A DNA stretch of 34,518 bases from positions 1-34,518 of the IMG/VR virus record IMGVR_UViG_3300029653_000081; one strand, 5' to 3'. The translations under genes and the position numbers were made by a program. The notes under the pieces were generated by a model. It was not told the DNA's origin, ran no database searches, and saw only the letters and a list, made by a program, of their open reading frames with translations. Each line of letters starts with the position of its first letter. The first letter of the stretch is position 1. Shown here one piece after another: positions 3,969 through 33,432 of the stretch. This DNA is from a virus (lineage: Duplodnaviria > Heunggongvirae > Uroviricota > Caudoviricetes).

Positions 3969-4194
3969 TAGATTGCTCTAATCTGGAGTCACCTGGCGTT
4001 TTCAGTATGGATTTTCTTTGGCGCGGTCTGGCCATTAGGGATCATGTTTGCTGCAACATTTCTTCTGATGTGGATATTCACCCTTCCCGGTGATTTCTAT
4101 AGAAAAAAAGCCAGACATTGATACAATCATTGCGGGTGCTTGAGGCTATCTGCTTCAGGCATTACCCGAAAAGCAGATAGAAGAAAGCCCCAGA

Positions 4195-4255
4195 TAACAT
4201 TACGCGTCCTGCAAGACGCTTAACATTAATCTGAGGCAATATCTATGCTTAGCAT
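4195..4255 (-). ncRNA. sok: sok-like antisense RNA (position inferred)
   Basis: Expected opposite the mok translation initiation region. A minus-strand TTGACC -35-like hexamer is at 4284-4289. Boundaries are not determined. Confidence 0.3.
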
Positions 4256-4451
4256 ACGTAGATTAGCCTCTTACCGACCAAAAGGTCAAGGAGAAGCAGG
4301 CTATGAAGCAGCAAAAAGCGATATTAATCGCTCTGATCGTCATCTGTTTAACCGTCATTGTGACGGCACTGGTAACGAGGAAAGACCTCTGCGAGGTACG
4401 AATCCGAACCGGCCAGACGGAGGTCACTGTCTTCACAGCCTACGAATCTGA
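4245..4451 (+). CDS. mok: mok-like overlapping reading frame
   Basis: 68-aa ORF starting upstream of, and overlapping out of frame with, the hok-like CDS, as in hok/mok/sok loci. Confidence 0.45.
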   Translation: MLSIRRLASYRPKGQGEAGYEAAKSDINRSDRHLFNRHCDGTGNEERPLRGTNPNRPDGGHCLHSLRI

Positions 4452-6537: not shown

Positions 6538-8127
6538 TTACTTAATAAGCAGCGGTACGCCCTGGATACGACGGGCTACGCCAGTCGGGCAGCAGGCCCA
6601 GACTACTTCCCATTTATCGAATTCCGCCTGCGTAACTTTCAGCACATACGGTTCTGTACCGTCAGCATCAGGATCACGAGGAGCCACCAGAGCGCCGGAG
6701 GCGACAAAGCGATCTAAAAGTTTGGTCATCCCTTTAGTCAGGCCAGCCGCAGTAATACCGTCCGGGCTATGCTTCATCTGTCGGGCTAACTGGACAAAGA
6801 AACGGCTGATTGCATTCATCAGGGATGGGACGTGCTGGAAGTGCAGATAGTTATCCTGCGTGCAGCAAGTTAAAGCATCGTCGATGATCATCTGGCCAGA
6901 GGTGCCAACAGATACTTTATTGAGACGGCCCTTGACCATTGCTTCTTCGTCCGGGGTATCTTCCGGATACAGCGGTTGAATTGACGCACGAGCAATGACG
7001 GCACGTTCTTCACCAGCCGGTGAGTAATGCCAACCGCCGACATCAGAGTTTTTCTTGACGCCACGAGCTTTCGCCGCATACGCCACGCCAGACAGACCAA
7101 AGACCACACGGGATTGGGTCCATTTGTCTTTGCAGGAGAACGGGTAGTGATAGACAGCACAGCTTACATAATCGGTACCAAGTAAACCGGTATCTTCAAC
7201 AGCAGAGATCGCTTCCGTGTACGTCAATGTCGGTTTGACATCAAAGAAGCCATCAATCAGGCGATCTGCACAGATTTTACCTAATGCGGTGATAGCCGCA
7301 TTGTCATAGCAGCCCAGGCCAAGAACAGCGGTGTACATGTACGGCGCATTATTCAGCACTTTAACCGCACGCAGGTACGCAGCGGTTGAGATTTTCGCCT
7401 GATCGCCGTTGGTACCGCCAGTGAACGCCAACGATTTTTTGTTTGTTACTTTCGCTGTCGAAATCAGCTCTTCATTAACAACCGCGCGCAGATATTTAGA
7501 ACGGGCTTCCAGAGCCGTAGGCAGATAACACAAGCGGCCCATGTCATCTTTCGCTTCTTCCGCCAAAGACACAGTGTGTGTCTCCAGGGTCGTTACCACG
7601 CCGAGCGAAGTCGTCTGGGTCAGTTTTAAGAGGAAGCGTTCATTACCCGCGCTGTCCGCTGTTGCCGTTTCGATGGTTAACTCACGGGTAGGTGAAATAC
7701 ACGGATCACCATCATCAACGTAGATAGCAAAGGCTTCGCCACTATCAAGTTCAATTTCAGAACCGTATGGCAACGCACTGTAAGCCGGTTCGCCTGATTC
7801 ATCGAACATAATAATCGGGAACTTCGCATCATCCGGAACAGCGCGAACAACATAACCAGACGTTTGCTGAATAGCTTCGTATACATGGCGAATTGGTTCG
7901 AACTGTGAGCCGGAAGACGGCTTCAGCGGTTCGCCGAGAACATCTTCGTAATTGGACTCAGTAACCGCAAGAACAGTAAACGGCTTGCCACGCGCAAATA
8001 CGCCAATACCAGCCCATAAGCTGCTATTTAATGCAACACCGGTAGATAACGTCGCATCGGCATTGATCGGGCTAACCGCGACGCCGGATGCATTACCTAA
8101 TGACTGTTGAATTGAATATTGAGACAT
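6538..8127 (-). CDS. Putative contractile tail sheath protein (529 aa)
   Basis: Size and position between the small structural genes and the capsid-like gene, as recalled for P1 gene 22. No motif check possible here. Confidence 0.4.
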   Translation of the reverse strand: MSQYSIQQSLGNASGVAVSPINADATLSTGVALNSSLWAGIGVFARGKPFTVLAVTESNYEDVLGEPLKPSSGSQFEPIRHVYEAIQQTSGYVVRAVPDDAKFPIIMFDESGEPAYSALPYGSEIELDSGEAFAIYVDDGDPCISPTRELTIETATADSAGNERFLLKLTQTTSLGVVTTLETHTVSLAEEAKDDMGRLCYLPTALEARSKYLRAVVNEELISTAKVTNKKSLAFTGGTNGDQAKISTAAYLRAVKVLNNAPYMYTAVLGLGCYDNAAITALGKICADRLIDGFFDVKPTLTYTEAISAVEDTGLLGTDYVSCAVYHYPFSCKDKWTQSRVVFGLSGVAYAAKARGVKKNSDVGGWHYSPAGEERAVIARASIQPLYPEDTPDEEAMVKGRLNKVSVGTSGQMIIDDALTCCTQDNYLHFQHVPSLMNAISRFFVQLARQMKHSPDGITAAGLTKGMTKLLDRFVASGALVAPRDPDADGTEPYVLKVTQAEFDKWEVVWACCPTGVARRIQGVPLLIK

Positions 8128-11126: not shown

Positions 11127-12334
11127 GCCGCCTCACCCCTAACAAACTCAATTCGATCAAACACAGCCTTAGTGAAACGCTCGGCCTCGGTTCGTGCCTT
11201 CTTCAGCGCCTCTGCACTGCCTGGATACGATTGCGGGTTGGCACTGATTACGGTGTCGAAAGACTCGCCGCATCGCTCAAAGCCATCCAGACGAGGCAGA
11301 GAAGAGTCCAGAATGTTGCTGGCGTAAACCTCACGCGCAAGGCTGTGTGATGTCTCGTGATCGCGCTTGCCGGTCATCTTCGACATAAAACCAATGCTGG
11401 CGCTCAAACGCGGTTCTACGCCTTCCTCCTCCAGTTGCTCCAGCATTTCTGGCAGACGGGTGAGATATTTCAGTGTTGAGTGGAAGTCAACCTGGGCTGG
11501 TGGGGTAGGGGTAAGCAGCAAATCGCTGGCCGCCAGACCGTTGAGCAGGAACGGATCCAGGTGTGGACCGGTATCAATAAAGATAAAGTCATAATCATCC
11601 GCAACACGATCAATGATATTGCGTCGAAGGATTTCGTACTGATTTTGTCCGGGAAGATGCTCTTCAACCAGCTCTTTCCATTGGCTGGCAACAAAGCCAT
11701 CGTCGATAGAGGCTGGAATCACGTCTACGCCAGGAACGATGGTCGGACGAATCACCTCTTTGCGTAGCGTCTCCGCGTCCAGGTCGTTCAGCATCGCCTG
11801 CGCGGCGGTTTCCAGGATGGAACCAATACTGTGAGTATGGTCGAGGAACATTGTGCTGGATGCCTGAGGGTCAAGGTCAATTACCAGAATGCGCAGATCG
11901 TGACGCAGTAAATCCTGATGCACACGCAGAGCGTGCGCCAACGTGACTGTGGAAACCGTTTTGGATACGCCACCCTTCAGGTTTACGACAAAAATAACGT
12001 AAGGCGATTTGTGAATGTCGCGATATTTGGGGATCTTACGGTGGGCATAGATATCAATGACGTTCTGGATGGTCAGCGCGTACTGTTCAACGTTACCGAC
12101 CTGTTTCTTGTTGAACTGGTACCCATCATCTTCCATCTCTTTGATGGCCTGCTCCACAATACGGCGGCTCAGCTTCGGCAACTTTGCCACAGCGTTACGA
12201 GTGAACGTCTGATAATACTCGGTCTGATTGAACTCTTTGCGCTGATCTTCAATATCCTGACTCATGGCCTTAAGTAATGCGCTTGCACGAAGAGCTATGG
12301 TGCCGACACCGCCGTAATCGCGTTTCATCATCAT
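11123..12334 (-). CDS. parA: Partition ATPase ParA (type Ia)
   Basis: 403 aa; deviant Walker A NLKGGVSKTVST, plus VIDLDPQ and FIDTGPHLD motifs; long N-terminal extension typical of P1-type ParA. Confidence 0.9.
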   Translation of the reverse strand: MMMKRDYGGVGTIALRASALLKAMSQDIEDQRKEFNQTEYYQTFTRNAVAKLPKLSRRIVEQAIKEMEDDGYQFNKKQVGNVEQYALTIQNVIDIYAHRKIPKYRDIHKSPYVIFVVNLKGGVSKTVSTVTLAHALRVHQDLLRHDLRILVIDLDPQASSTMFLDHTHSIGSILETAAQAMLNDLDAETLRKEVIRPTIVPGVDVIPASIDDGFVASQWKELVEEHLPGQNQYEILRRNIIDRVADDYDFIFIDTGPHLDPFLLNGLAASDLLLTPTPPAQVDFHSTLKYLTRLPEMLEQLEEEGVEPRLSASIGFMSKMTGKRDHETSHSLAREVYASNILDSSLPRLDGFERCGESFDTVISANPQSYPGSAEALKKARTEAERFTKAVFDRIEFVRGEAA

Positions 12335-16100: not shown

Positions 16101-16117
16101 ATTGCTCTAATAAATAT
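16101..16117 (+). promoter_or_regulatory. C1 repressor operator upstream of the uhr-rdgC-dmt operon
   Basis: ATTGCTCTAATAAATAT (16 of 17); TTGCTC -35-like with TTATAT/TATATC about 16-17 nt downstream. Confidence 0.8.
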
Positions 16118-21076: not shown

Positions 21077-21600
21077 CGGTCAATGGGGCTATCGACTGGC
21101 TTAACCGCGCTTCTTATTTTTTCACCCTTGATCCATCCCCAGACAATATGCGGCGCGTTGGTCGTGGCCGCCGTCGCCGTGGTGTTTGTTATTGCATGGC
21201 ACTACCCGATGTTAAAGAACGTGAAGTCAGAGATGGCGTTCTGTGCTTCCGTCGTGTGGCTGAACGCGGCACAGAGCCAAAAAATACGAATTCTCCCGAG
21301 TGGTGGGCGTGGCGCTGGTCCGCACATTTCGGCCTTTGCGAAGATGAGAATGAAATTGCCAGCGGCAATAGTGCATATGGTGCTCTGAACCTGGCTTTCC
21401 ATATCGGATTCAAACATGTAGCCCTGGTGGGCGTTGACGCTACGCAAGAACTACGCGTTCACTCCGGCGGCACGCCAAAAAATCTAAGTCACCTGCCTTT
21501 GTTATTCCAGTCTGCGCGTGAACAGATTGACGTTGTTTCATGCGGGAAAATGGGAGGTATTCCGCAGATGACTCTTAAAGAATGGCTGAAGAATACATGA
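20974..21600 (+). CDS. Rossmann-motif protein, paralog 2
   Basis: [40 protein letters not shown]; its start overlaps the 3' end of paralog 1. Confidence 0.5.
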
Positions 21601-22274
21601 TGGCACCCACAATTTATCACCGTATCGACGGTACCAAATACAGGAATGTCTGGGTTGTTGGTGATCTGCATGGTTGCTACACCAGACTGATGTCCGAACT
21701 CCATCGTGTGGATTTTGACCCGGCGCAGGATTTACTGATATCGGTCGGCGACCTTATCGATCGCGGTACTGAAAATGTCGAATCTCTGGAACTATTGCAG
21801 ATGCCCTGGTTCAGGGCAGTAGTGGGGAACCATGAGCTGTTGATGCTCGATGCGTTAAGTCCTGATGGCAACGTGAATAACTGGCTAATGAATGGCGGTC
21901 AATGGTTCTTCATGCTGGACGCTGATCAGGAAATATTAGCCAGGGCGCTGGTGGAGTTGGTAAGACGACTGCCCTATATCATTGAGTTGAACACCGGGCA
22001 AGAAACTATCGTTATAGCCCATGCCGACTATCCGGATAATGAATATCAATTCGGTAAGGAGGTGCCGCTTTTCAACGTTGTCTGGGCGCGCGAGCGTATC
22101 AGTGATTCGATGGATGATATTGGTGGCGAAATTTCGGGCGCAGATCGTTTTATCTTTGGTCACACTCCGGTGAAAAGCCCGAAGACATTCTGGAATCAGC
22201 ATTATATCGACACAGGTGCCGTATTTTGCGGAAACCTGACATTGAAGAAAGTGAAAGGTGATGGTGCAGCATGA
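21582..22274 (+). CDS. Lambda-type Ser/Thr protein phosphatase (metallophosphatase)
   Basis: GDLHG, GDLIDRG and GNHE motifs; start may be ATG at 21597 or 21600. Confidence 0.85.
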
Positions 22275-22971
22275 AGATTGCTTTAGTTCTTCGCTCTGGT
22301 GGTGACTATAACGCTTCCGATGTGCAGTGGCTGGTTAATCAACTGCCAAAAGACTATGAAATTATTTGCCTGACAGACCTGAAGTGTTTACATGTACCTG
22401 GCGTCAAAGTTATCCCATTGATCAACCAGTGGCAAAAGTGCCGTGGCTGGTGGGCGAAAATCGAGTTGTTCCGACCGGATATAACCGATGATCTGTTCTA
22501 TCTGGATTTGGACACGGTTATTGCCGGTGATATACGCCCAATCCTAGAGAATCCACCAACCAACTTCACCATGCTTAGGGATTTTTACCATCCACAATAT
22601 CGTGGCAGCGGGGCCTGTGGATACCAAATAGTGTAAAAGCGCATATCTGGAGTGCATTCTGGCAAGATCCGGAAGGTTGGATTGCTCGTTGTGTTACTAC
22701 TGAATGCTGGGGTGATCAGGGGTTTTTGCGGAAGGTTATGGGTGATGATACACCAGCATTTCAGGATCTGTATCCGGGATGGTTTGTAAGTTACAAGGCC
22801 GATGTTGTGGAACCTGGTTCGAAATATGCGAGCGCGCGTTACTCCAGGGGGAATGGGGCATTACCAAAAGACTGCCGAATAATCTTTTTCCACGGCAAAC
22901 CGCGACCTCGCGAAGTGTCAGAGGATTGGATTCCCCTTACCAGCTCGTTTTTTGAGCAAGTATCAGAATAA
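22271..22971 (+). pseudogene. Glycosyltransferase-like gene (DxD motif) split by a one-base frame change
   Basis: Frame 2 (22271-22636) contains YLDLDTVIAGDI; frame 1 is open from 22579 and continues to 22971 (..ECWGDQGFL..). The frames overlap around a G4 run at 22610-22613. Confidence 0.5.
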
Positions 22972-22972
22972 T

Positions 22973-22989
22973 ATTGCTCTAATAATTCC
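22973..22989 (+). promoter_or_regulatory. C1 repressor operator, left member of an inverted pair
   Basis: ATTGCTCTAATAATTCC; the 5' 13 nt match the consensus. Confidence 0.7.
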
Positions 22990-22997
22990 ATATTTTT

Positions 22998-23027
22998 AAA
23001 ACGTGATGTACACTCATCACGTTTTTT
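22998..23027 (+). terminator. Rho-independent terminator between the operator pair
   Basis: aaaacgtgatg-tacact-catcacgtttt (11-bp stem) followed by tt. Confidence 0.7.
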
Positions 23028-23038
23028 ATTAGAGCAAT
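23022..23038 (-). promoter_or_regulatory. C1 repressor operator, right member of the inverted pair
   Basis: Minus-strand ATTGCTCTAATAAAAAA; arrangement resembles bidirectional paired operators described for P1. Confidence 0.7.
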
Positions 23039-23052
23039 TTACAAGGTGCACT

Positions 23053-23271
23053 ATGTGGCCATTCCGACGGAAATATCACTACTGGCTGATCGCCTTTGTT
23101 ACGCCGACCGGCGGTATCAGGCATGTCATCACCAGGTATCGCAACAAGAGACTCACCTTAGCCAGAATTTTACAGGCTGCCATAGGTGAGGGACTGGATA
23201 CAAATTGCGTAGTCCTTCCTCCTTCATACTTAGGAAAAATGACCGAAGCACAAGCTAATACGGAACTTTGA
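23053..23271 (+). CDS. Small basic hypothetical protein (72 aa)
   Basis: First ORF downstream of the operator pair; no motif recognised. Confidence 0.35.
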   Translation: MWPFRRKYHYWLIAFVTPTGGIRHVITRYRNKRLTLARILQAAIGEGLDTNCVVLPPSYLGKMTEAQANTEL

Positions 23272-23272
23272 A

Positions 23273-24535
23273 ATGAGCACTTCAGCACAAAAGCAATCAA
23301 TCGAAAATGTATCTATCCCTGATGTCCTGAATGCCGGTATCCCGGCCATTATCCAGAACATCCGGGCCGCGCAACGCCGCGTTAGTTGTGATGACCTCAC
23401 AGCACGTTTTTTTGATAATGCGGTTCAGTCAGCGGAGATGCTTCACGCACAGCTTATTGATGTTTATAACGCAGAAGCTGATAGCCATAACTCCCTGGTA
23501 GATGCAGCTGAAAATATGCAGTTGGATCTCGGTCTGAAGGGTAAAGAAATTGAAGAGCTTCAGCTGCAAATTGAACATTTGAAACGCCAGCAACAGGACG
23601 CGATCGACGATGCGACGCATGACTCCAACCAGCGTGCTGATAATGCCGAACGTATAAGCATTGAGCTGGAAACAAAACTCAATGAAATGACCGCGATGGT
23701 TGAACTGCGGAACTCACAGATTTCAACGCTAAAATCTCAATATAAAGAGATCATGAAACTTGATCCTTTTAACCTTGAGAAACGCTATAACAAAGCTAAA
23801 AGCGAGCGACAGGAACTGCGTAAGCAGGTCGCCGACCTTAACCAACAGCTCAAAAAAACTATTAAAGATGCAAGCGAGGCGCGCGTGGCATTTGCTAATA
23901 AAAAAGCAGAGGTTACCGCGCTGGTTAATGAGAATGCCAAATTTGCGACGCTCAAGAAGGAAATGTATGGCATTACTGAGCGCCGTTTCCCTGCAAGCAA
24001 ACTTCATCCGACGTTAGGGCAAATCTCCTTCTTCCCGCGCCTCCTGGCTTATGGGATCTCATCGCCTAAAGAGTTCAATAACGAGCGTCCTTATATCGTT
24101 TCTAAGCTGGACTTTGCTTATCAGTTCTGCTGCGACATGGGCTATGCCATTGATATCCGAATCAACGAATGGTTGATGCCAAACTTCCAGCCGTTGGCAA
24201 TTTTCCGCGAGTTTCAGCCGGAAGGTTGGGTAGAGTTCTTCCATGAATTGATCTGTAAAGAGATGGAAAGCCGCCGCCCGGAATTGGTCCGTCGAGTTGA
24301 GTGGGCGCAAGAGGTTATGTTGGCAGATGCAGAGCTGCCGTTCGAACCGGAATTCATTGATGATCTGGCAACTAAAGGGCTGCATACCCTGTTTGATGTG
24401 GTTACCCGCCGTCATGAGCAGTTGGTTGTCGAATTGGGTTTAGAGGAAACTGCGGCAAGAAGACTTCTCGATGTTTGCTATGCACGTAGCGATGCATGGG
24501 AAAAAGAGAACGGCGGCACTATTTACGTTCGCTGA
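23273..24535 (+). CDS. Coiled-coil protein with unknown C-terminal domain (420 aa)
   Basis: Residues about 60-250 are heptad-like and Q/E/K-rich (EELQLQIEHLKRQQQDAIDDA...); C-terminal region contains FAYQFCCDMGYAID. Confidence 0.5.
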   Translation: MSTSAQKQSIENVSIPDVLNAGIPAIIQNIRAAQRRVSCDDLTARFFDNAVQSAEMLHAQLIDVYNAEADSHNSLVDAAENMQLDLGLKGKEIEELQLQIEHLKRQQQDAIDDATHDSNQRADNAERISIELETKLNEMTAMVELRNSQISTLKSQYKEIMKLDPFNLEKRYNKAKSERQELRKQVADLNQQLKKTIKDASEARVAFANKKAEVTALVNENAKFATLKKEMYGITERRFPASKLHPTLGQISFFPRLLAYGISSPKEFNNERPYIVSKLDFAYQFCCDMGYAIDIRINEWLMPNFQPLAIFREFQPEGWVEFFHELICKEMESRRPELVRRVEWAQEVMLADAELPFEPEFIDDLATKGLHTLFDVVTRRHEQLVVELGLEETAARRLLDVCYARSDAWEKENGGTIYVR

Positions 24536-24554
24536 TAGTTACAGTGTCACTTTT

Positions 24555-24588
24555 AATGCTGGTGGAGTGCTCCCACCAGCATTTTTTT
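24555..24588 (+). terminator. Rho-independent terminator after the coiled-coil gene
   Basis: aatgctggtgg-agtgctc-ccaccagcatt followed by ttttttt. Confidence 0.8.
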
Positions 24589-24607
24589 CGTCCAATGAGG
24601 AGGGCAT

Positions 24608-25114
24608 TTGAGTATTTTCAATAAACACGCACACCAGGAACGTCCGTACATCGTCATAGTAGATATTGATGGGACGATATCAGAGGCAACGGAAGACAGG
24701 CTGCATTTACTTCCACCACCTGGCAAAGGTGCATTAACAGAGCACTGGAACGAGTTTAACCTTGCCTGTGACACTGATGCTCCCATCACTCCAGTTATTG
24801 ATATGGTGCGCCAGTTATTTAACGTTTACACGGTCTGGTTTGTAACCGGGCGCTGTGAGATCGCAAGGGATAAAACACGAGCCTGGCTGCGGAAGTACGT
24901 AACAAACGGGGCTGAGCCTTTGCTATCTATGCGTCCTGCCACCGATGACAGAAATGACGGTCCAGCAAAGATTGATCTCCTGAAGAAAATTGGTCTAAGT
25001 AAAATTGCGTTCGCGCTGGAAGATAAGATTGAAGTGGCGCGTGTGTTCAGGAGTCATGGCGTACTTACATTAATGGTCAGGGAGTATGAAAATGCGCTTC
25101 TTCATCAACAATAA
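24608..25114 (+). CDS. HAD-superfamily phosphatase-like protein (168 aa)
   Basis: TTG start 6 nt after AGGAGG; motif I IVIVDIDGT and motif II-like WFVTGR. Confidence 0.55.
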   Translation: MSIFNKHAHQERPYIVIVDIDGTISEATEDRLHLLPPPGKGALTEHWNEFNLACDTDAPITPVIDMVRQLFNVYTVWFVTGRCEIARDKTRAWLRKYVTNGAEPLLSMRPATDDRNDGPAKIDLLKKIGLSKIAFALEDKIEVARVFRSHGVLTLMVREYENALLHQQ

Positions 25115-25130
25115 TTGTTCTAATAAATCT
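25114..25130 (+). promoter_or_regulatory. C1 repressor operator abutting the HAD gene stop
   Basis: ATTGTTCTAATAAATCT (15 of 17); TTGTTC -35-like with TAAAAC about 17 nt downstream. Confidence 0.65.
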
Positions 25131-25299: not shown

Positions 25300-25378
25300 G
25301 GGGAGTATATTAGCCATTTGGAACCCCACGAGCTCTTGCGGGTTTAATTAAGAACCCGCAAGAAAAACACGAATTGGG

Positions 25379-28300
25379 CTATATTTTTCCGCCTACGCCT
25401 TTAAACTTCTCAATAAACGAGACGATTTTCTGGAAAACTGCCTGTTTTTTCGTTTTATATTGCGGATTCAACGGACTAAGTTTTGGTAATGTTTCGTTTA
25501 ATTCTGTGCCATTTTCGGTGGCGTATTCGCGTTTTAAAGACGTGCGAATATAGCGTTTTGCTGCATCTTCATTGAGATTTTCTTCTTTTATCAATGCTTC
25601 TGCTTCACGTTGCTGTTCGCGTTGAGCAAACGTAAAGAATGCCTCAATGATACTGGCTTTGTCTGGTAAATCATCCAGGTTCGTTTGCTGAATAAAATCG
25701 ACCACCAGGCCCTCTTTCGCCCGGTTCCCCAGGCTTGAACGAATTAAGCGTTTGACCTCTTCGATCATTTCGCCCTTGCCTTTATTTTGTCTGTTGTGTT
25801 CGAAAATCAGTCCAAGGATATAATCCAGGTTTATTTCCTGAGACTTCAGCAAATCGACCTCAAAAACCACGTCATCCCAGTCAGTGGTTGATTTCTCTTT
25901 TTTCTCAGCTTCTTTCTCACGGCGCTGCCAGTCGCGAATATCGTTATAGGCAGAACGATAATCCTGAATCTTGCGATCAGCAGGGAGACGAATTGTTTGC
26001 AATTCAGCGAACTTTTCATCATCCACATAATGTTCTGCTTTGAATTTTTCTACCGCAACAGGATCGCTAAGATCGATTTGTTGCAGGGCTTTTAGCGTGG
26101 CAAATTCATCATAGTTTTGCAGGATGTTCTCGGCACGCAGGTATTCGCCAAACAGTTTAACGAAGTCTTTCTTCTCTTTTTCACTTTCAATACTGGCAGG
26201 GTCAGGGAACCGTTGTTCCAGTTCTGAAACTACTGCCATAAAGCCGCGTTTGGCTTCACCGGTGGCAGCATCAGTAAAACCTTCCATATACTCTGCATAA
26301 CTCTTTTCTAACACCACATTTTTGGTATTTTTATCACCAAACAGCGTTATGGCATCAATGGTTGAGCGTTCCAGATCCCGAAAAGTGACAATGTTACCGA
26401 AGGTTTTAGTGGCGTTATAAATGCGGTTGGTGCGGGAAAATGCCTGCATCAGGCCGTGAAAACGCAAGTTTTTATCGACGAATAGCGTGTTCAATGTTGG
26501 AGCGTCGAAGCCGGTTAAAAACATCCCAACGACAATTAACAGATCGATATCCTGATTTTTAACCCGTTGGGCTAAATCGCGATAGTAGTTCTGAAAACCG
26601 TTACCGTCGGTGCTGAAGTTAGTTTTAAAATAGCTGTTATACTCACGAATTGCAGCGTCAAGAAACTCTTTAGCACTGCTGTCCATTGCGCTGGTATCAA
26701 AAGTTTCATCGGAAATTTCACCAATGGCATTTTGTTCTTCATTAGCGGCAAAGGAGAAGATTGTCGCAACACGCAGCGGTTTATAAGTTGCAGATTTATT
26801 AGCGGCTTCCTCTTGTAACCGTTTAAACGCCGCGTAATAGGCTTTTGCAGCATCCACGCTGCTCACTGCCAACATAGCATTAAAACCTTTTGCGCCAGGG
26901 AAAGTACGGTGCGTCTTCTGGCGGAAGTTATTCAGAATATATTGCGTAATTTCCTGTATACGCATGGGATGAAGAAACGCCTGCTGATTTTCAGCCGCAC
27001 TTAGTTTTTTCTCGTCAGTTTCTGTCTCTAAAGACTTAAACTGTGGCCGCACATCGTTGTAGTCCACCTTGAATTTGAGCACTTTTTCATCACGAATCGC
27101 ATCGGTAATTACATACGAATGCAATTCACGACCAAATACGCTGGCGGTCGTTTCTGAGCCTAAGGCGTTTTCCGGGAAAATAGGTGTGCCGGTAAAACCA
27201 AACTGATAATAGCGTTTGAATTTCTTCTTCAGGTTTTTCTGCGCTTCTCCAAACTGGCTGCGGTGGCATTCATCAAATATAAACACCACTTGCTGATTAT
27301 ATACAGGCAGGTCGCTTTCTGCTTTCATCAGGTTATTGAGTTTCTGAATAGTAGTGACGATAATTTTGTTATCGTCCTTATCCAGATTTCGTTTAAGGCC
27401 TGCGGTATTTTCCGAGCCGTTGACGCTGTCTGGCGAAAAACGCTGATATTCCTTCATGGTCTGGTAATCGAGGTCTTTCCTGTCGACCACAAAGAAGACT
27501 TTATCAATAAAGTCCAGCTCTGTTGCCAGACGCGCGGCTTTAAAGCTGGTGAGGGTTTTACCAGAACCGGTAGTGTGCCAGATATACCCACCGCTTTCCG
27601 GTTTTGACCAGTTCTTCGCTGTAAAGGAACTCTTAATTTTCCACAGAATGCGCTCGGTGGCGGCAATCTGGTACGGTCGCATCACCAGTAGCGTCTGACT
27701 ACTGTCAAAAACGCTGTAGTTCACCAGAACATTCAGCAGAGTATGTTTCTGGAAAAAGGTAGCGGTAAAGTCTTTGAGGTCTTTAATCAGCGTGTTGTCT
27801 GATTTCGCCCAATTCATGGTGAAGTCAAAACTGTTTTTATCGCGCTTTGTCGTGTTGGCAAAATAACGGGTATCGGTGCCGTTAGAAATGACAAACAGTT
27901 GCAGATACTTAAACAGGGAATTTTCGCTGTTAAAACTCTCTTTACTGTAACGATGTATCTGGTTGAAAGCCTCACGAATCGCCACCCCGCGTTTTTTTAG
28001 TTCGATTTGCACCAGCGGTAAACCATTAACCAGGATCGTGACGTCATAACGGTTAGCATGAGAACCCGTCTGTTCAAACTGCTGGATAATCTGCACCTTA
28101 TTGCGCATGAGATTCTTTTTATCTATCAAATAGATGTTCTCAAGTCGCCCGTCATCAAAAATAAAGTCGCAGATATAGTCGATATGGATTTTACGGGTTT
28201 TATCCAGAATACCATCGCTGGGGTTGTCCAGATACTGCTCCGTGAAGCGCCGCCACTCGCTGTCATTAAACATCACACCATTGAGGCTCTGAAGCTGTTC

Positions 28301-28495
28301 CCGAACATTGGACAGCATTGCCGACTGTGATTTTACGGAAATAAATTCATAACCCTGATTTTGCAGGTCCTGAATCAGTTCACGTTCCAGGTCCGATTCG
28401 CTCTGGTAGCTGTCGCCTGTTGGCTCAGCTTTGATGTACTTATCAAGAACGATAAAGTTATTGGATTCAGCAATGGTGTGTGTCTGATGAGTCAT
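25379..28495 (-). CDS. hsdR: Type I restriction enzyme R subunit HsdR (1038 aa)
   Basis: Helicase motifs TTGSGKT and [10 protein letters not shown]; size and position after hsdM-hsdS. Confidence 0.9.
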
Positions 28496-28616
28496 AGCGC
28501 ATCCTTTGTGCCGTCTGGCAAGGGCCGGAAGGGGGGTAATGGTGACTTCCGGCGCGTAAAAAATAGTCTATATACTGACCGGGTGTTAAGGTGGTCCGAT
28601 CGGTAGCAATGATCAA

Positions 28617-29822
28617 TTAATTACTGGCAGTTTCAGGTTTCGGGAAACTGAACAGTAAATCACGGTAGTATTCGTATTGTTTCTGGCGCAACTCGATTTC
28701 ACGCGGAAGACCTTCGGTGATGGAAGCTGCGATTGCATCAAACTTATCCAGAATATCCACAATACGCCCCTGTTCGTCTAAAGATTTTTGAGGGTGAGAT
28801 GGGTATGGAATAGGTACTCTGACTTGTTTCAGTGCATTAGCATTAAACTGTGGTTGCCCACCACCAGATACTAATTTATTAGCCTGTTCCCAAAAAAAAT
28901 CACTTTGTGCAAAGTGCCAGTAATATTTGGCATTAATAATCGTTTTATTTAGGTTCAACTTTATTAAAAAACCAGCGTATACTGCTGGATAATCTTCTTC
29001 AAAAATCATTGTTTTACCAAAGGTTGCCCCAGTTCTTGCCATGAGTAAATCATTTTTGTCTAAGGTATATTTCTCATTTTCCTCATTTAATTCAACGTAC
29101 ATTGGGTTTTCTTTCGATAGCTTCCCGTCTTTATTTATGTCAGTAATTCTCACGAAACGGGCATCTCCTGAATCCATGGCTTTGGCTGCATATCCATATG
29201 TAAAATCTCCAATTTCCCCCAAAGTCTTCCACTCAACCTCACCATCTTTAAAACTCAACAACTGGTCGCGATAGTAGTTGTACTGTTTTTTACGCATGTT
29301 AAGCTCAGCGGTAAGCTCAGCGGTAAGTGCAGTAAATTTATCCAGAATCCGAACGATTTCAGACTGGATGGCAAGGGATTTTTCCGGATTATCCGGGCAG
29401 GGGATGGGGATAGGGAAATTCTCTAAGGTTGATAGCACGATATATGTCATTGCCGCGCTATTTGTTCTTTCCTCGAGATATTTCTTCAGGCTATGGCTAA
29501 GCACAAAATACAAAAATCTAACACTTACATTTTCGTCGAAATTTGTCAGAACATAGGTGCGCTGATAAGCCTCAAACTTGCCGATGTAATGCTTCACCTC
29601 ACCAACATTCGCATTGCCTGCAATCAGCAATGCCTCTGTATCCCAGCGGAATTTATCAATTTTGCTTGTCTCTTTGGCTGTCGTGAAGAACATATACTCT
29701 CCATCATCAACAGCCGCATTCGCATTAAGCTTTCCTGTTTCAATTTTGCAAGTTTGCCCAAGTGTCTTCCACTCAACCTCAACCCCATCCAGCAATTTTT
29801 CCAGATAACTCATCTCGCTCAT
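28617..29822 (-). CDS. hsdS: Type I specificity subunit HsdS (401 aa)
   Basis: Two target-recognition halves each ending in a conserved repeat ([19 protein letters not shown] and [19 protein letters not shown]); 4-nt overlap with hsdM. Confidence 0.85.
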
Positions 29823-31381
29823 TTCTGCACCTCGCAGCCTTCAATTTCAGCCACAATTGCATCAATATCTTTACGCAACTGGTCGATTTTGCTGACCGTG
29901 GTTTTCAGCTCTGCATTCAGCTCACCGATATCGATAATTTCGCGGTTATCTTTCGCTTCCACATAGCTGCTCACCGACAGGTTATAGTCATTCGCGACAA
30001 CAGTCTCAAACGCAACAGATTTCGCCAGATGAGCAACATCTTCCTTGCTGGCAAATACCTGCATAATCTGTTCGATATGGGCATCGGTCAGGATATTGTT
30101 GTTGGTTTCTTTTTTGAACAGTTCGCTGGCATCAATAAACTGAACTTTGGTATCCGTTTTATGTTTAGACAGCACCAGAATGTTTACAGCAATAGTGGTG
30201 CCAAAGAACAGGTTCGGTGCCAGTGAAATCACGGTTTCGACATAGTTATTATCGACCAGATACTGACGGATTTTCTGCTCCGCGCCGCCACGGTAAAAAA
30301 TACCCGGGAAGCAGACAATCGCAGCACGACCTTTGGCCGAAAGATAGTTCAGCGCATGTAGTACAAACGCAAAGTCAGCTTTGGATTTGGGGGCCAGGAC
30401 GCCAGCCGGGGCAAAACGTTCATCGTTAATCAGCGTCGGGTCATCGCTGCCAATCCATTTCACCGAATACGGCGGGTTAGAAACGATGGCATCAAACGGT
30501 TTTTCATCTCTGAAGTGTGGCTCAGTCAGTGTATTACCCAGCTTGATATCAAACTTGTCGTAGTTGATGTTGTGCAAAAACATGTTCATACGTGCCAGGT
30601 TATAGGTTGTATGGTTGATTTCCTGACCAAAAAAGCCTTCTTCGATGATATGGTTATCAAACTGCTTTTTAGCCTGCAACAACAGTGAGCCGGAACCCGC
30701 TGCCGGGTCGTAGATTTTGTTAACGTTGGTCTGCCCGTGCATAGCCAGTTGTGCAATCAGCTTGGAGACGTGCTGCGGTGTAAAGAACTCACCGCCTGAC
30801 TTACCGGCATTTGCCGCATAGTTAGAAATCAGGAACTCATAGGCATCACCGAACAGGTCAATCTGATGTTCGTTGAAGTCACCAAGTTTTAACCCTTCAA
30901 CCCCTTTCAGAACCGCAGCCAGGCGGGCATTTTTATCTTTAACGGTGTTACCCAGGCGGTTACTGGTGGTATCGAAATCAGCAAACAAACCTTTGATGTC
31001 TGCTTCTGAAGGGTAGCCGTAAGCAGAACTTTCGATAGCAACGAAGATGCTGTTTAAATCTGCGTTCAGTCTGTCATTGGTATTTGCTTTCGCAGCTACG
31101 TTGCAGAAAAGCTGACTGGGGTAGATGAAGTAGCCTTTAGTTTTGATGGCATCGTCTTTAATGTCATCAGTAATTACGCTGTCATCCAGTTTCGCATAAC
31201 AGATACTGTCATCACCGGCTTCAATATAACTGGAAAAATTTTCGCTGATAAAACGGTAGAAAAGTGCGCCCAGAACGTATTGCTTAAAATCCCATCCATC
31301 GACCGAACCCCTGACATCGTTAGCAATTTGCCAGATTTGACGATGAAGCTCTGCACGTTGTTGAATACTTGTCATTTTCAT
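29819..31381 (-). CDS. hsdM: Type I N6-adenine methyltransferase HsdM (520 aa)
   Basis: NPPY motif ([10 protein letters not shown]) and AdoMet-binding [11 protein letters not shown]. Confidence 0.9.
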
Positions 31382-33415: not shown

Positions 33416-33432
33416 ATTGCTCTAATGTATTG
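33416..33432 (+). promoter_or_regulatory. C1 repressor operator upstream of lpa
   Basis: ATTGCTCTAATGTATTG, immediately after the pdcB stop. Confidence 0.7.

Follow-up and report, generated by a model that had tools for sequence, protein, structure and literature searches.

A Predicted Op86-Controlled pmgR-pmgS Operon of a P1-Type Phage-Plasmid and the Possible Role of Its Coiled-Coil Product

The DNA between positions 23,053 and 24,588 of the window (the whole stretch that was analysed, 34,518 nucleotides of the viral record IMGVR_UViG_3300029653_000081) is, as judged by its sequence, almost certainly the Op86-controlled pmgR-pmgS operon of a P1-type phage-plasmid. Taken as a whole, the best explanation, to which a probability of roughly 0.75 is assigned, is that this operon would provide a non-structural PmgR and a PmgS serving as an accessory in DNA transactions. 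The operon is already known; it is long annotated in P1, where deletions and knock-downs of the two genes have followed, and annotation of the operon together with its operators and products reportedly dates from the P1 genome paper of Lobocka et al. in 2004. Being the long-annotated pmgR-pmgS operon of P1, the region is ordinary, and the genome feature itself matters little. New here are the domain make-up of PmgS, the lack of conservation of most of its cysteines, the early-region context of its distant homologues, and the finding that homologues of PmgR are confined to P1-like elements and always located directly 5' of pmgS.

PmgS, which is conserved throughout P1-like phage-plasmids, can now be described as a coiled coil followed by a novel beta/alpha domain and an (HhH)2 domain, which provides a handle on a DNA or protein partner. 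Its label "PmgS-like head morphogenesis" (PHROG 1660, RefSeq) is without experimental or structural support and is contradicted by the contexts of distant homologues. PmgR, essential, unseen in the virion and restricted to P1-like elements, is among the last unexplained essential gene products of P1.

Identity and Gene Content of the Region

Nucleotide identity to phage P1 in the region amounts to 98.4%, and 19 records of P1/P7-type phages match positions 22600-24700 at 98-99% nucleotide identity, with pmgQ, pmgR, pmgS, and pap annotated beneath the match. In the P1 record, the operators OpmgRa and OpmgRb (Op86a/b), the promoter PpmgR, and the genes pmgR and pmgS are all annotated at the corresponding positions; the P7 record has an identical layout, with the two genes named shtA and shtB. 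The unit of two genes under operator control and closed by a terminator, which the earlier note had proposed, was recovered with all its elements in place, including both open reading frames on the plus strand. The first of these, pmgR (shtA in P7; 23053..23271, ATG start; PHROG 3177, E 4e-47), codes for a protein of 72 amino acids (8.3 kDa, pI 10.1), and the second, pmgS (shtB in P7; 23273..24535, ATG start; PHROG 1660, E 2e-194), for one of 420 amino acids (48.3 kDa, pI 5.3). Protein homologues are conserved for each, which identifies both as real genes. Only 1 nt lies between the stop codon of pmgR and the start codon of pmgS, so that translational coupling is probable. PmgR is identical to P1 PmgR in 72 of 72 residues, the DNA being 100% identical as well, and the eight synonymous and three non-synonymous differences between pmgS and P1 pmgS leave 417 of 420 residues identical to the AF234172 product. 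Both genes are included in the 21 extremely conserved genes that were described for 77 P1-like phage-plasmids (PMC9603915).

The neighbouring genes are those of P1, on one strand throughout. Upstream are located ppp (21582-22274, plus strand), a Metallophos open reading frame, and a frameshifted pmgQ (22271-22971, plus strand), both at the position expected from P1, while downstream follows pap (24608..25114, plus strand), a phosphatase of the HAD/PNKP type according to Pfam (HAD_PNKP, E 1.2e-11) and the P1 annotation. In P1, ppp, pap, and pmgQ code for dispensable accessory enzymes.

Transcriptional Control Elements

Upstream of pmgR, two C1 operators are predicted, namely, OpmgRa (former Op86a; 22973..22989, plus strand), which is identical to positions 82152-82168 of AF234172, and OpmgRb (former Op86b; 23022..23038, minus strand), whose 17 bp match P1 throughout, the closest deviation being found at position 23039. 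Each of them matches the P1 C1 consensus ATTGCTCTAATAAATTT with three mismatches; the centres are 49 bp apart and the orientations are inverted. Sites of this type occur seven times in the whole window, versus a chance expectation of 0.28, and none of 100 shuffled sequences reached that count. The consensus match and the identity to annotated sites of P1 and P7 suggest that the two are C1-repressor operators, arranged as an inverted pair around a promoter and corresponding to OpmgRa/b of P1. The earlier note had seen in them an Op72-like pair that had acquired a new cargo. By position and sequence, the pair is P1's own Op86a/b, and the idea of a swapped cargo has to be given up, since Op86a/b of P1 already controls exactly pmgR and pmgS.

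The sigma-70 promoter PpmgR (22974..23002, plus strand) is predicted by transfer from the P1 annotation. Its hexamers TTGCTC (-35; 22974-22979) and TAAAAC (-10; 22997-23002) agree with the consensus at three and four of six positions, respectively; the promoter is weak by this measure and was not called by a generic promoter scan. OpmgRa overlaps the predicted -35 hexamer, and the predicted start site lies within a hairpin located between the operators (22998..23031, no strand assigned), which is composed of AAAACGTGATG-TACACT-CATCACGTTTT and a T-run. According to RNA folding, this hairpin has an energy of -13.4 kcal/mol (z -5.3), with none of 200 shuffled sequences being equally stable; it looks like a terminator of the upstream ppp-pmgQ transcript and may act as such.

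An intrinsic terminator (24555..24590, plus strand) was found 3' of pmgS by a hairpin/T-run scan and by folding. It is made up of an 11-bp stem with six G-C pairs and a 7-nt loop (24555-24583), followed by TTTTTTT, has a folding energy of -18.5 kcal/mol (z -2.7), and differs from P1 in a single loop base. Because the P1 annotation shows no separate promoter for pap, this gene is possibly expressed by read-through of this terminator and would then be co-transcribed. According to the P1 annotation, pmgS is driven by the early C1-controlled promoter; a crude scan of the upstream plus strand for a P1 late promoter (LPhot -22 box AAGTTACTT plus -10) found none, which is a weak negative.

The anatomy of the region and the P1 annotation would be compatible with the following course of events. 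In the lysogen, C1 would occupy both inverted 17-bp operators bracketing the weak sigma-70 promoter, and the operon would be switched off. Upon inactivation of C1, transcription would begin within the hairpin that otherwise ends the ppp-pmgQ transcript, pass through pmgR and pmgS, mostly halt at 24555-24590, and perhaps leak into pap. Membership of the operon in the lytic programme, as had been claimed before, agrees with the repression by C1 and with the need for the pmgR product in the formation of infectious particles that is described in PMC9024508.

Domain Architecture of PmgS

Residues 42-232 of PmgS (23396..23968, plus strand) form two long helices in the AlphaFold2 model (residues 42-160 and 166-232), which break at a conserved K-L-D-P turn near residue 163. 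The coiled-coil character attributed to the large protein at the outset is borne out by this model, in which the helical region is predicted to be of the long coiled-coil type; a simple heptad-periodicity score failed to tell coiled-coil from globular sequence and was not used. In the family alignment, the motif "ELKxLxxxxPxxLKK" is conserved. The helices are followed by a small beta/alpha domain (residues 235-347; 23975..24313, plus strand) with the conserved pattern LDF...R-x-N-E-W-L-x-P...HP-x-L-x-x-R-x-x-W-A, for which no significant structural neighbour was found, and by an (HhH)2 domain (residues 350-412; 24320..24508, plus strand). The latter is of the type found in RNAP alpha-CTD, the Rad51 N-terminal domain, and the NusA acidic repeats, as supported by profile and structure, and displays the five-helix fold with two helix-hairpin-helix motifs. 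It was by structure prediction and remote homology search, the very checks that had been recommended, that both domains were found in the C-terminal part.

The C-terminal domain had previously been described as unrecognised and Cys-containing. The first attribute was appropriate, while a cysteine domain is not present, the C-terminal part being composed of the beta/alpha domain and (HhH)2 and containing no CxxC. Among the cysteines of PmgS (C39, C286, C287, C328, and C402), C402, located in the last helix, is the only one to represent the majority residue in the family alignment, with most others, including the C286/C287 pair, being unconserved. A metal-binding cysteine domain was considered and rejected on these two grounds, the missing CxxC motif and the poor conservation of most cysteines.

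Gly-hydrophobic-Gly hairpins, the type that contacts the DNA backbone, are found across the family at large, whereas the second one is degenerate in the P1 clade. Its sequence in P1 PmgS is ELGLEE, with a net charge of -8 for the domain (range in the P1 clade, -6 to -8); in most family members, this hairpin is of the type KG(I/L/M)GxK(T/S)A, and the net charge is about 0. A protein, and not DNA, is suggested as the partner by the acidic character of the module in the P1 clade and by the loss of one DNA-contacting hairpin. An acidic HhH module devoid of the second GhG hairpin, as present in the P1 clade, is not what would be expected of a protein binding DNA directly.

Matches of PmgS to TPR, SMC, Rad50, and LmuB (Pfam/NCBIfam/PADLOC) and to myosin were sub-threshold and were discarded as noise of coiled-coil composition. 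Those of the SMC/Rad50 type covered coiled-coil segments only, with 12-18 bits versus cut-offs of 300-729, and since the model is without an ATPase domain, PmgS is not a member of that group. Foldseek searches of BFVD returned nothing at E <= 0.001, and Pfam, NCBIfam, and PDB contained no structural family match beyond coiled-coil noise. Had PmgS clearly resembled a family of structural or scaffolding proteins, this would have spoken against the lytic-cycle role envisaged by the earlier note; no such homology was found, the PHROG label being a propagated gene name.

Relatives of PmgR and PmgS and Their Gene Context

PmgS-like proteins form an uncharacterised family of early phage coiled-coil proteins ending in (HhH)2, with about 120 clusters at 50% identity. 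They are found in P1-like phage-plasmids, in Aeromonas and other lambdoid-type prophages, and on plasmid-like contigs, and their genes typically adjoin those for RecT, exonuclease, methylase, and RdgC. Single-protein scans of viral contigs yielded one full-length relative from the first scan and none from the second, and the evidence on homologue context is made up of 12 look-ups by exact protein. Among the gene orders found are exonuclease-RecT-x-PmgS-like-Dam-RdgC-integrase, RecT-Gp157-PmgS-like, and Dam-PmgS-like-integrase; other loci are plasmid or nin-like regions. The homologues are located in early recombination, replication, integrase-proximal, or plasmid-like regions rather than in a late or structural gene module. 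Outside the P1-like phages, PmgS-like genes never adjoin capsid or tail genes, and one terminase gene is found 3.5 kb away. In one distant P1-like element, the PmgS homologue is near genes for Tad2-like and Sequestin proteins. The RecT neighbourhood, which may be read in terms of DNA transactions, would be equally fitting for anti-nuclease or anti-defence genes, which cluster there, too.

The PmgR family comprises 34 cluster representatives, and those on judgeable contigs (about 90-98 kb) are P1-like. In six of the six P1-like lineages examined, the gene for the PmgS homologue is immediately preceded by one for a PmgR homologue, and screening of eight non-P1-like PmgS-homologue loci with a PmgR profile revealed none. 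PmgR has no match in Pfam, NCBIfam, or PADLOC. One clade of the family possesses a hydrophobic C-terminal tail, and the basic charge is not kept there.

Function of PmgS

An in-frame deletion of pmgS has been made in P1, and all viable P1 knock-outs plate normally and are normally restricted by EcoA, EcoB, and EcoK; by CRISPRi knock-down, pmgS is non-essential. PmgS does not appear in the main text or tables of the P1 virion proteome paper (PMC9024508), nor among the proteins named in the available text of the P1 cryo-EM paper (PMC12810830). Together with the early-region context of the homologues, this makes a non-structural nature of PmgS very likely, and the entry "PmgS-like head morphogenesis" of PHROG 1660 is nominal, a propagated P1 gene name under which PmgS is probably mislabelled. 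The P7 annotators, for their part, chose the sheath-related names shtA and shtB. PmgS would be a dispensable early cytoplasmic coiled-coil protein and no building block of the particle, whose (HhH)2 domain would dock it either to DNA or to a protein involved in DNA handling or transcription. Its function may tentatively be sought in an accessory contribution to phage DNA transactions, be it in replication, in recombination, or in preparing the substrate for packaging.

Alternatively, as the earlier note had suggested, PmgS could be a counter-defence or host-takeover protein that is dispensable in laboratory hosts devoid of the respective defence. In a first version, it would inhibit a host nuclease or an SMC-type defence in the manner of Gam; in a second one, it would mimic RNAP alpha-CTD or the NusA acidic repeat and redirect host transcription. 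Early C1-controlled expression, non-essentiality in K-12 derivatives, and the absence of PmgS from the virion proteins named in the available parts of both P1 studies would be in line with this, as would the location among the dispensable accessory enzymes ppp, pap, and pmgQ of P1 and the Tad2-like and Sequestin neighbours in the one distant element. In lambda, gam is found at the corresponding place downstream of RecT, which is where lambdoid prophages carry their PmgS-like gene. However, PmgS is not homologous to any anti-defence protein that has been characterised, the only published test shows normal restriction of the deletion mutant on EcoA, EcoB, and EcoK hosts, and literature searches retrieved nothing specific on an anti-defence role for pmgS or its neighbours. 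Counter-defence genes, moreover, usually reside in variable regions, whereas pmgS is among the most conserved P1-like genes, and the fact that it stays closely linked to pmgR, an essential gene of morphogenesis, in each of the P1-like lineages examined suggests a shared core function. A counter-defence or takeover role is for these reasons considered unlikely, though worth bearing in mind. The further-reaching proposal that PmgS-like proteins represent a new class of inhibitors or hijackers (Gam-like blockers or mimics of alpha-CTD/NusA-AR), to which the pairing with PmgR would be linked, is rather doubtful. As a linked possibility, the PmgR-PmgS pair of P1-like phages might control how replicated DNA is passed on to the machinery of packaging and head completion.

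PmgR and Virion Completion

According to PMC9024508, deletion of pmgR from P1 is non-viable and leads to unjoined tails and incomplete heads, is complemented in trans, and resembles in phenotype the deletion of the adaptor gene pmgC, with PmgR itself being undetected by LC-MS/MS of the virion. The P1 connector, as listed in the cryo-EM paper, is composed of Prt, PmgC, and gp7, plus the terminator gp24, and does not include PmgR (PMC12810830); by a term count of the full text, PmgR is mentioned nowhere in that paper. CRISPRi knock-down of pmgR caused no defect, in conflict with the deletion, and is counted by the authors as a missed essential gene. Small proteins can escape mass spectrometry and cryo-EM alike. 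The resemblance to the pmgC deletion makes a low-copy structural role of PmgR possible. Because it is undetected by virion mass spectrometry and absent from the cryo-EM model, PmgR is most likely a non-structural cofactor of head completion or packaging that is specific to P1-like myoviruses. It would be a small basic protein needed for complete virions, in whose absence tails and incomplete heads pile up.

If the incomplete heads were unfilled proheads, PmgR could be essential in DNA packaging together with PacA/PacB, acting on replicated P1 DNA that PmgS would help to tether. The pacA control of the deletion study likewise yields proheads and free tails, and the pI of 10.1, the absence of PmgR from the resolved connector as far as the available cryo-EM text goes, and its early co-expression with an (HhH)2-bearing protein would fit. 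The authors of the deletion study, however, place pmgR with the adaptor gene pmgC and not with pacA (PMC9024508), the basic charge is lost in the clade with the hydrophobic tail, and searches of Pfam, NCBIfam, PADLOC, and PHROG detected no DNA-binding motif in PmgR, which leaves such a packaging role rather improbable.

A true morphogenetic scaffold, ruler, or chaperone acting with PmgR in head completion or tail/sheath assembly, redundant in the laboratory, is very improbable for PmgS: scaffolds and assembly chaperones commonly have long coiled coils, the names point that way (pmg for putative morphogenetic, P7 shtB for "sheath contraction", and the PHROG label), and pmgS adjoins, is probably translationally coupled with, and in all P1-like lineages examined stays paired with a gene whose deletion blocks virion completion, but the pmgS deletion has no plaque defect, the protein figures neither in the proteome paper, as far as its main text and tables go, nor among the proteins named in the available cryo-EM text, the promoter is early and C1-controlled with no upstream late promoter in the crude scan, homologues outside the P1-like phages reside in early regions that serve recombination or replication or lie close to the integrase, and (HhH)2 is not a known scaffold fold.

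Comparison with Known Systems

The reference (HhH)2 domains are those of RNAP alpha CTD (PF03118), the Rad51/RadA N-terminal domain, NusA AR1/AR2, and HHH_5 (PF14520). Unlike these, the PmgS copy is joined to a coiled coil of about 190 residues and to a novel beta/alpha domain, and in the P1 clade the domain is acidic and its second hairpin is without Gly-x-Gly, whereas most members of the PmgS family keep KGIGxKTA. With proteins of the SMC/Rad50/MukB type, including LmuB of Lamassu, PmgS shares a long coiled coil that is interrupted midway by a conserved break; unlike them, it has no ATPase head, Walker motifs, or zinc hook, and the hits to them lie far below the family cut-offs (18 bits versus 567-729). 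The Op86 unit and the Op72a/b-ban unit of P1 are both early, C1-repressed, and equipped with an operator pair, the latter being situated at a different locus and having the DnaB-type helicase Ban as cargo. The closest counterpart is P1 itself (GenBank AF234172, 82152-83714), with which genes, gene order, neighbours, operators, hairpin, and terminator are shared and from which the operon is distinguished by point differences only; in the surroundings, pmgQ has a 1-bp deletion here, and a type I hsd locus is located 3' of pap in place of pmgT-humD of P1.

Organization of the pmgR-pmgS Operon and Its Identity with P1

Two plus-strand ORFs with ATG starts make up the operon, pmgR (72 aa, 23053-23271) and pmgS (420 aa, 23273-24535), and the TGA of the former is separated from the ATG of the latter by 1 nt. 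Upstream of pmgR, two matches to the 17-bp consensus of the C1-repressor operator are found in inverted orientation, OpmgRa at 22973-22989 on the plus strand and OpmgRb at 23022-23038 on the minus strand, with their centres spaced by 49 bp. The window holds seven such matches against 0.28 expected, a number that was reached by no shuffle. Exactly between the two operators lies a terminator-like hairpin, AAAACGTGATG/CATCACGTTTT, with further T residues behind it (22998-23031; -13.4 kcal/mol, z -5.3), while pmgS is followed by a canonical intrinsic terminator (24555-24583) with an 11-bp stem containing 6 G-C pairs and a T7 run. The ORFs, the consensus matches, and the hairpin after pmgS bear out the two-ORF unit with inverted operator pair and terminator that the earlier note had described.

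Taken as a whole, the window is an E. coli phage-plasmid of the P1 type. Nineteen P1/P7-type phage records match the stretch 22600-24700 from end to end at 97.9-98.6% identity, with pmgQ, pmgR, pmgS, and pap annotated under the matches. In the P1 record AF234172, OpmgRa (former Op86a) is described as a "monovalent C1-controlled operator" controlling expression of pmgR and pmgS; the corresponding positions also carry a predicted promoter, PpmgR, and, on the other strand, OpmgRb (former Op86b). The genes annotated there measure 219 bp (pmgR) and 1263 bp (pmgS), with pap next. No differences from P1 are present in the DNA of pmgR, while pmgS shows eight synonymous and three nonsynonymous differences (S2I, K7N, and S118A). 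The operator-hairpin-operator segment differs from P1 in one base, just outside operator b, and P1 and P7 share the hairpin element unchanged.

Regulation of the Operon

Judging from this anatomy and the P1 annotation, C1 bound to both operators would cover both the -35 region and the beginning of the transcribed sequence of a weak predicted promoter. The hairpin between them is built like a terminator and would end the upstream C1/Op83-controlled pmgN-ppp-pmgQ transcript. The annotated -10 of PpmgR (22997-23002) overlaps the left arm of the hairpin; transcripts initiated from this promoter would begin past that arm and, lacking it, would escape the terminator, which would halt read-through from pmgQ. 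As read from the sequence, such a promoter-in-terminator arrangement would be an attractive one. The 1-nt distance between the genes suggests that pmgS is translationally coupled to pmgR.

The TTG start of pap, with a strong GAGGAGG Shine-Dalgarno sequence, lies 18 nt past the T-run of the pmgS terminator (24590-24608). Since no pap promoter is annotated in P1, the pmgS terminator is probably leaky, with pap being expressed via read-through. In that case, the transcription unit would be pmgR-pmgS-(pap).

Further Features of the Window

The pmgQ gene (22271-22971), which in P1 is a nonessential, glycosyltransferase-like gene of 233 aa, has lost 1 bp near 22612-22613 in comparison with P1 and falls into two ORFs, one of 121 aa (22271-22636) and one of 81 aa (22726-22971); it is either a pseudogene or the product of a sequencing error. 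Homology to P1 stops at 25303 (P1 coordinate 84482), just before the expected start of pmgT. In place of P1 pmgT-humD, a type I restriction-modification locus is located on the minus strand within 25379-31381, comprising hsdR (25379-28495), an S-subunit-sized ORF (28617-29822), and an hsdM-sized ORF (29819-31381), so placed that an Op88-like C1 operator (25114-25130) and its promoters now face the 3′ end of hsdR. A resemblance of this junction to the DNA that lies 3′ of the EcoDXXI and R124 hsd loci is noted in the P1 record. Four more C1-operator matches with one to three mismatches are found at 537-553, 2207-2223, 16101-16117, and 33416-33432, the first of them a short distance 5′ of the c4 antisense RNA region. 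Rfam identifies the immI elements of P1, namely the c4 target sites a1/b1 (614-666) and the C4 antisense RNA (735-820). A full-length sok-type antitoxin RNA (Rfam, 114 bits) is present at 4134-4308. P1 carries three tRNA genes; none was found in the window, from which the respective P1 segment is absent.

Domain Architecture of PmgS

Direct family scans of PmgS gave only subthreshold coiled-coil matches, and, apart from one outlier (27% identical) with a Pfam HHH_5 match, its close homologues all lie on P1-like contigs of about 90-98 kb. An exhaustive profile search gave 120 cluster representatives at E ≤ 0.001, 83 of them at E ≤ 1e-10 and many full length (370-470 aa). When 30 diverse members were scanned singly, Pfam RNA_pol_A_CTD was matched by 10 and HHH_5 by 9; positions 344-400 of the 30-member profile matched the PDB sequences of the RNAP alpha-CTD (1doq, E 3.9e-8), the N-terminal domain of human Rad51 (1b22, E 3.1e-7), and, more weakly, NusA acidic-repeat regions. 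The full-length AlphaFold2 model (pLDDT 72.5) has helices at 15-35, 42-160, and 166-232, followed by a beta/alpha domain and a helical C-terminus; a second model, of residues 225-420 and built from 76 sequences, reached pLDDT 92.5 and pTM 0.87. Structural matches of the C-terminal part include RAD51D and many SAM domains; there was no significant match for residues 235-347 in the structure search and none for PmgS in BFVD.

PmgS accordingly consists of a conserved N-terminal motif (RRVxCDDL, in the family RxxGDDL), a coiled-coil-type helix of about 190 residues with a conserved K-L-D-P break, a small novel beta/alpha domain (235-347), and a C-terminal double helix-hairpin-helix, (HhH)2, domain. 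The "Cys-containing domain" of the earlier note proved wrong: the five cysteines form no motif and most of them, C286 and C287 among these, vary across the family, so that a metal site is rejected. In most family members the second hairpin is of the canonical KG(I/L/M)GxK(T/S)A type and the domain is roughly neutral, whereas in the P1 clade this hairpin is lost (ELGLEE, NYDMTPED, and similar) and the net charge of (HhH)2 is -6 to -8, which is closer to the protein-binding acidic repeats of NusA than to a DNA clamp.

Distribution and Genomic Context

A PmgR homologue is located directly 5′ of the PmgS homologue in six P1-like lineages (P1/P7 and five distant relatives, recognized by a giant DarB-like methylase-helicase gene some kb further 5′), across which PmgS identity falls to about 20%. 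The PmgR matches range from E 1e-12 to 2.6e-6; in one lineage, the ORF had been missed by the gene caller. The PmgR family comprises only 34 cluster representatives, and all contigs long enough to judge are P1-like in size. Members are mostly basic and about 72-76 aa long, and their predicted layout is beta-beta-alpha-beta. One clade from distant P1-like elements (P0260 and P0272-P0277; loci L009/L010 7577-7870 and L020 6584-6889) is not basic and has a hydrophobic, membrane-anchor-like C-terminal tail (...CCLIPFLVLGLVVWL...); P1 PmgR, with a pI of 10.1, lacks such a tail.

At eight PmgS-like loci outside P1-like elements, a PmgR profile screen found no homologue. There, the PmgS-like gene resides in early, nonstructural regions, and no case amid capsid or tail genes was seen among the neighbourhoods examined. 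Aeromonas prophages encode, in this order, CI-type repressors, a DUF3799 exonuclease, RecT, a 362-aa protein, the PmgS-like protein, a Dam/MT-A70 methylase, RdgC, and an integrase. Other orders are Cro, RecT, Gp157, PmgS-like in a P22/lambda-like element; Dam, PmgS-like, integrase; cytosine methylase, PmgS-like, ParE, StbA on a plasmid-like contig; and NUDIX, DUF4942, PmgS-like, NinX. The 362-aa protein (L003 6862-7950, L004 1313-2401) is conserved and without a Pfam match; at its position, the locus L012 encodes a Gp157-family protein. Outside P1, PmgS-like proteins might have either of these two as a functional partner.

Likely Functions of PmgR and PmgS

In-frame deletions of 29 P1 genes have been reported by Gonzales et al. 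2022 (PMC9024508). Deletion of pmgR yielded zero infectious particles, tails and incomplete heads being formed as with the pmgC deletion, and rescue in trans restored both plaque formation and lysogen establishment; the assignment to the lytic cycle made in the earlier note was right. PmgR (8.3 kDa) was undetected in the virion proteome, and HHpred returned nothing for it. Its absence from the detected virion proteins favours a role as a nonstructural completion or packaging cofactor. In the CRISPRi study of Piya et al. 2023 (PMC10695390), both genes were scored nonessential; pmgR is a known essential gene missed by the knock-down, while pmgS is nonessential by both methods. In the passages covered of a cryo-EM paper (PMC12810830), the P1 connector is assigned to Prt, PmgC, and gp7, with gp24 as terminator, and neither PmgR nor PmgS is named; a full-text term count of that paper gave no "pmgR". 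Both genes are among the 21 extremely conserved ones in 77 P1-like phage-plasmids (PMC9603915).

PmgS would be an early cytoplasmic accessory whose (HhH)2 module serves as an anchor, either on DNA or, as is more probable for the P1 clade, on a protein that takes part in DNA handling or transcription. A role in DNA transactions is tentatively given a probability of about 0.35. Counter-defence or host takeover, as guessed in the earlier note, is a rather doubtful possibility and concerns PmgS only. In an 86-kb distant P1-like element (L009/L010), the PmgR/PmgS pair is flanked by Tad2-like (7036-7584; weak Pfam match) and Sequestin (11479-11934; Pfam) genes. Both families are phage counter-defence proteins, which suggests that the region gathers such genes in that lineage. 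In P1, the viable knock-outs, pmgS included, behaved like the parent on EcoA, EcoB, and EcoK hosts (PMC9024508). A true morphogenetic protein is very improbable, and the structural reading was rejected in favour of the early cytoplasmic accessory. In PHROGs, PmgS belongs to phrog_1660, whose label, "PmgS-like head morphogenesis", is simply the P1 gene name. All knock-outs except the nonviable ones plated normally (PMC9024508).

Comparison with Known Systems

The earlier interpretation is partly supported overall. All defining features of the P1 Op86-pmgR-pmgS operon were found, and the unit to which the feature belongs is known and already annotated. Since the P1 positions are annotated as Op86a/b with pmgR-pmgS, the likening to Op72 and ban was mistaken; the pair controls its normal cargo. 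What is added is incremental: the domain assignment of PmgS, already partly in databases since certain Aeromonas homologues are listed in UniRef as [quoted passage not shown]; the evidence that the head morphogenesis label of PmgS has no foundation; and the pairing of PmgR with PmgS, which is strict and confined to P1-like elements. In P7, the arrangement is as in P1, with the genes named shtA and shtB.
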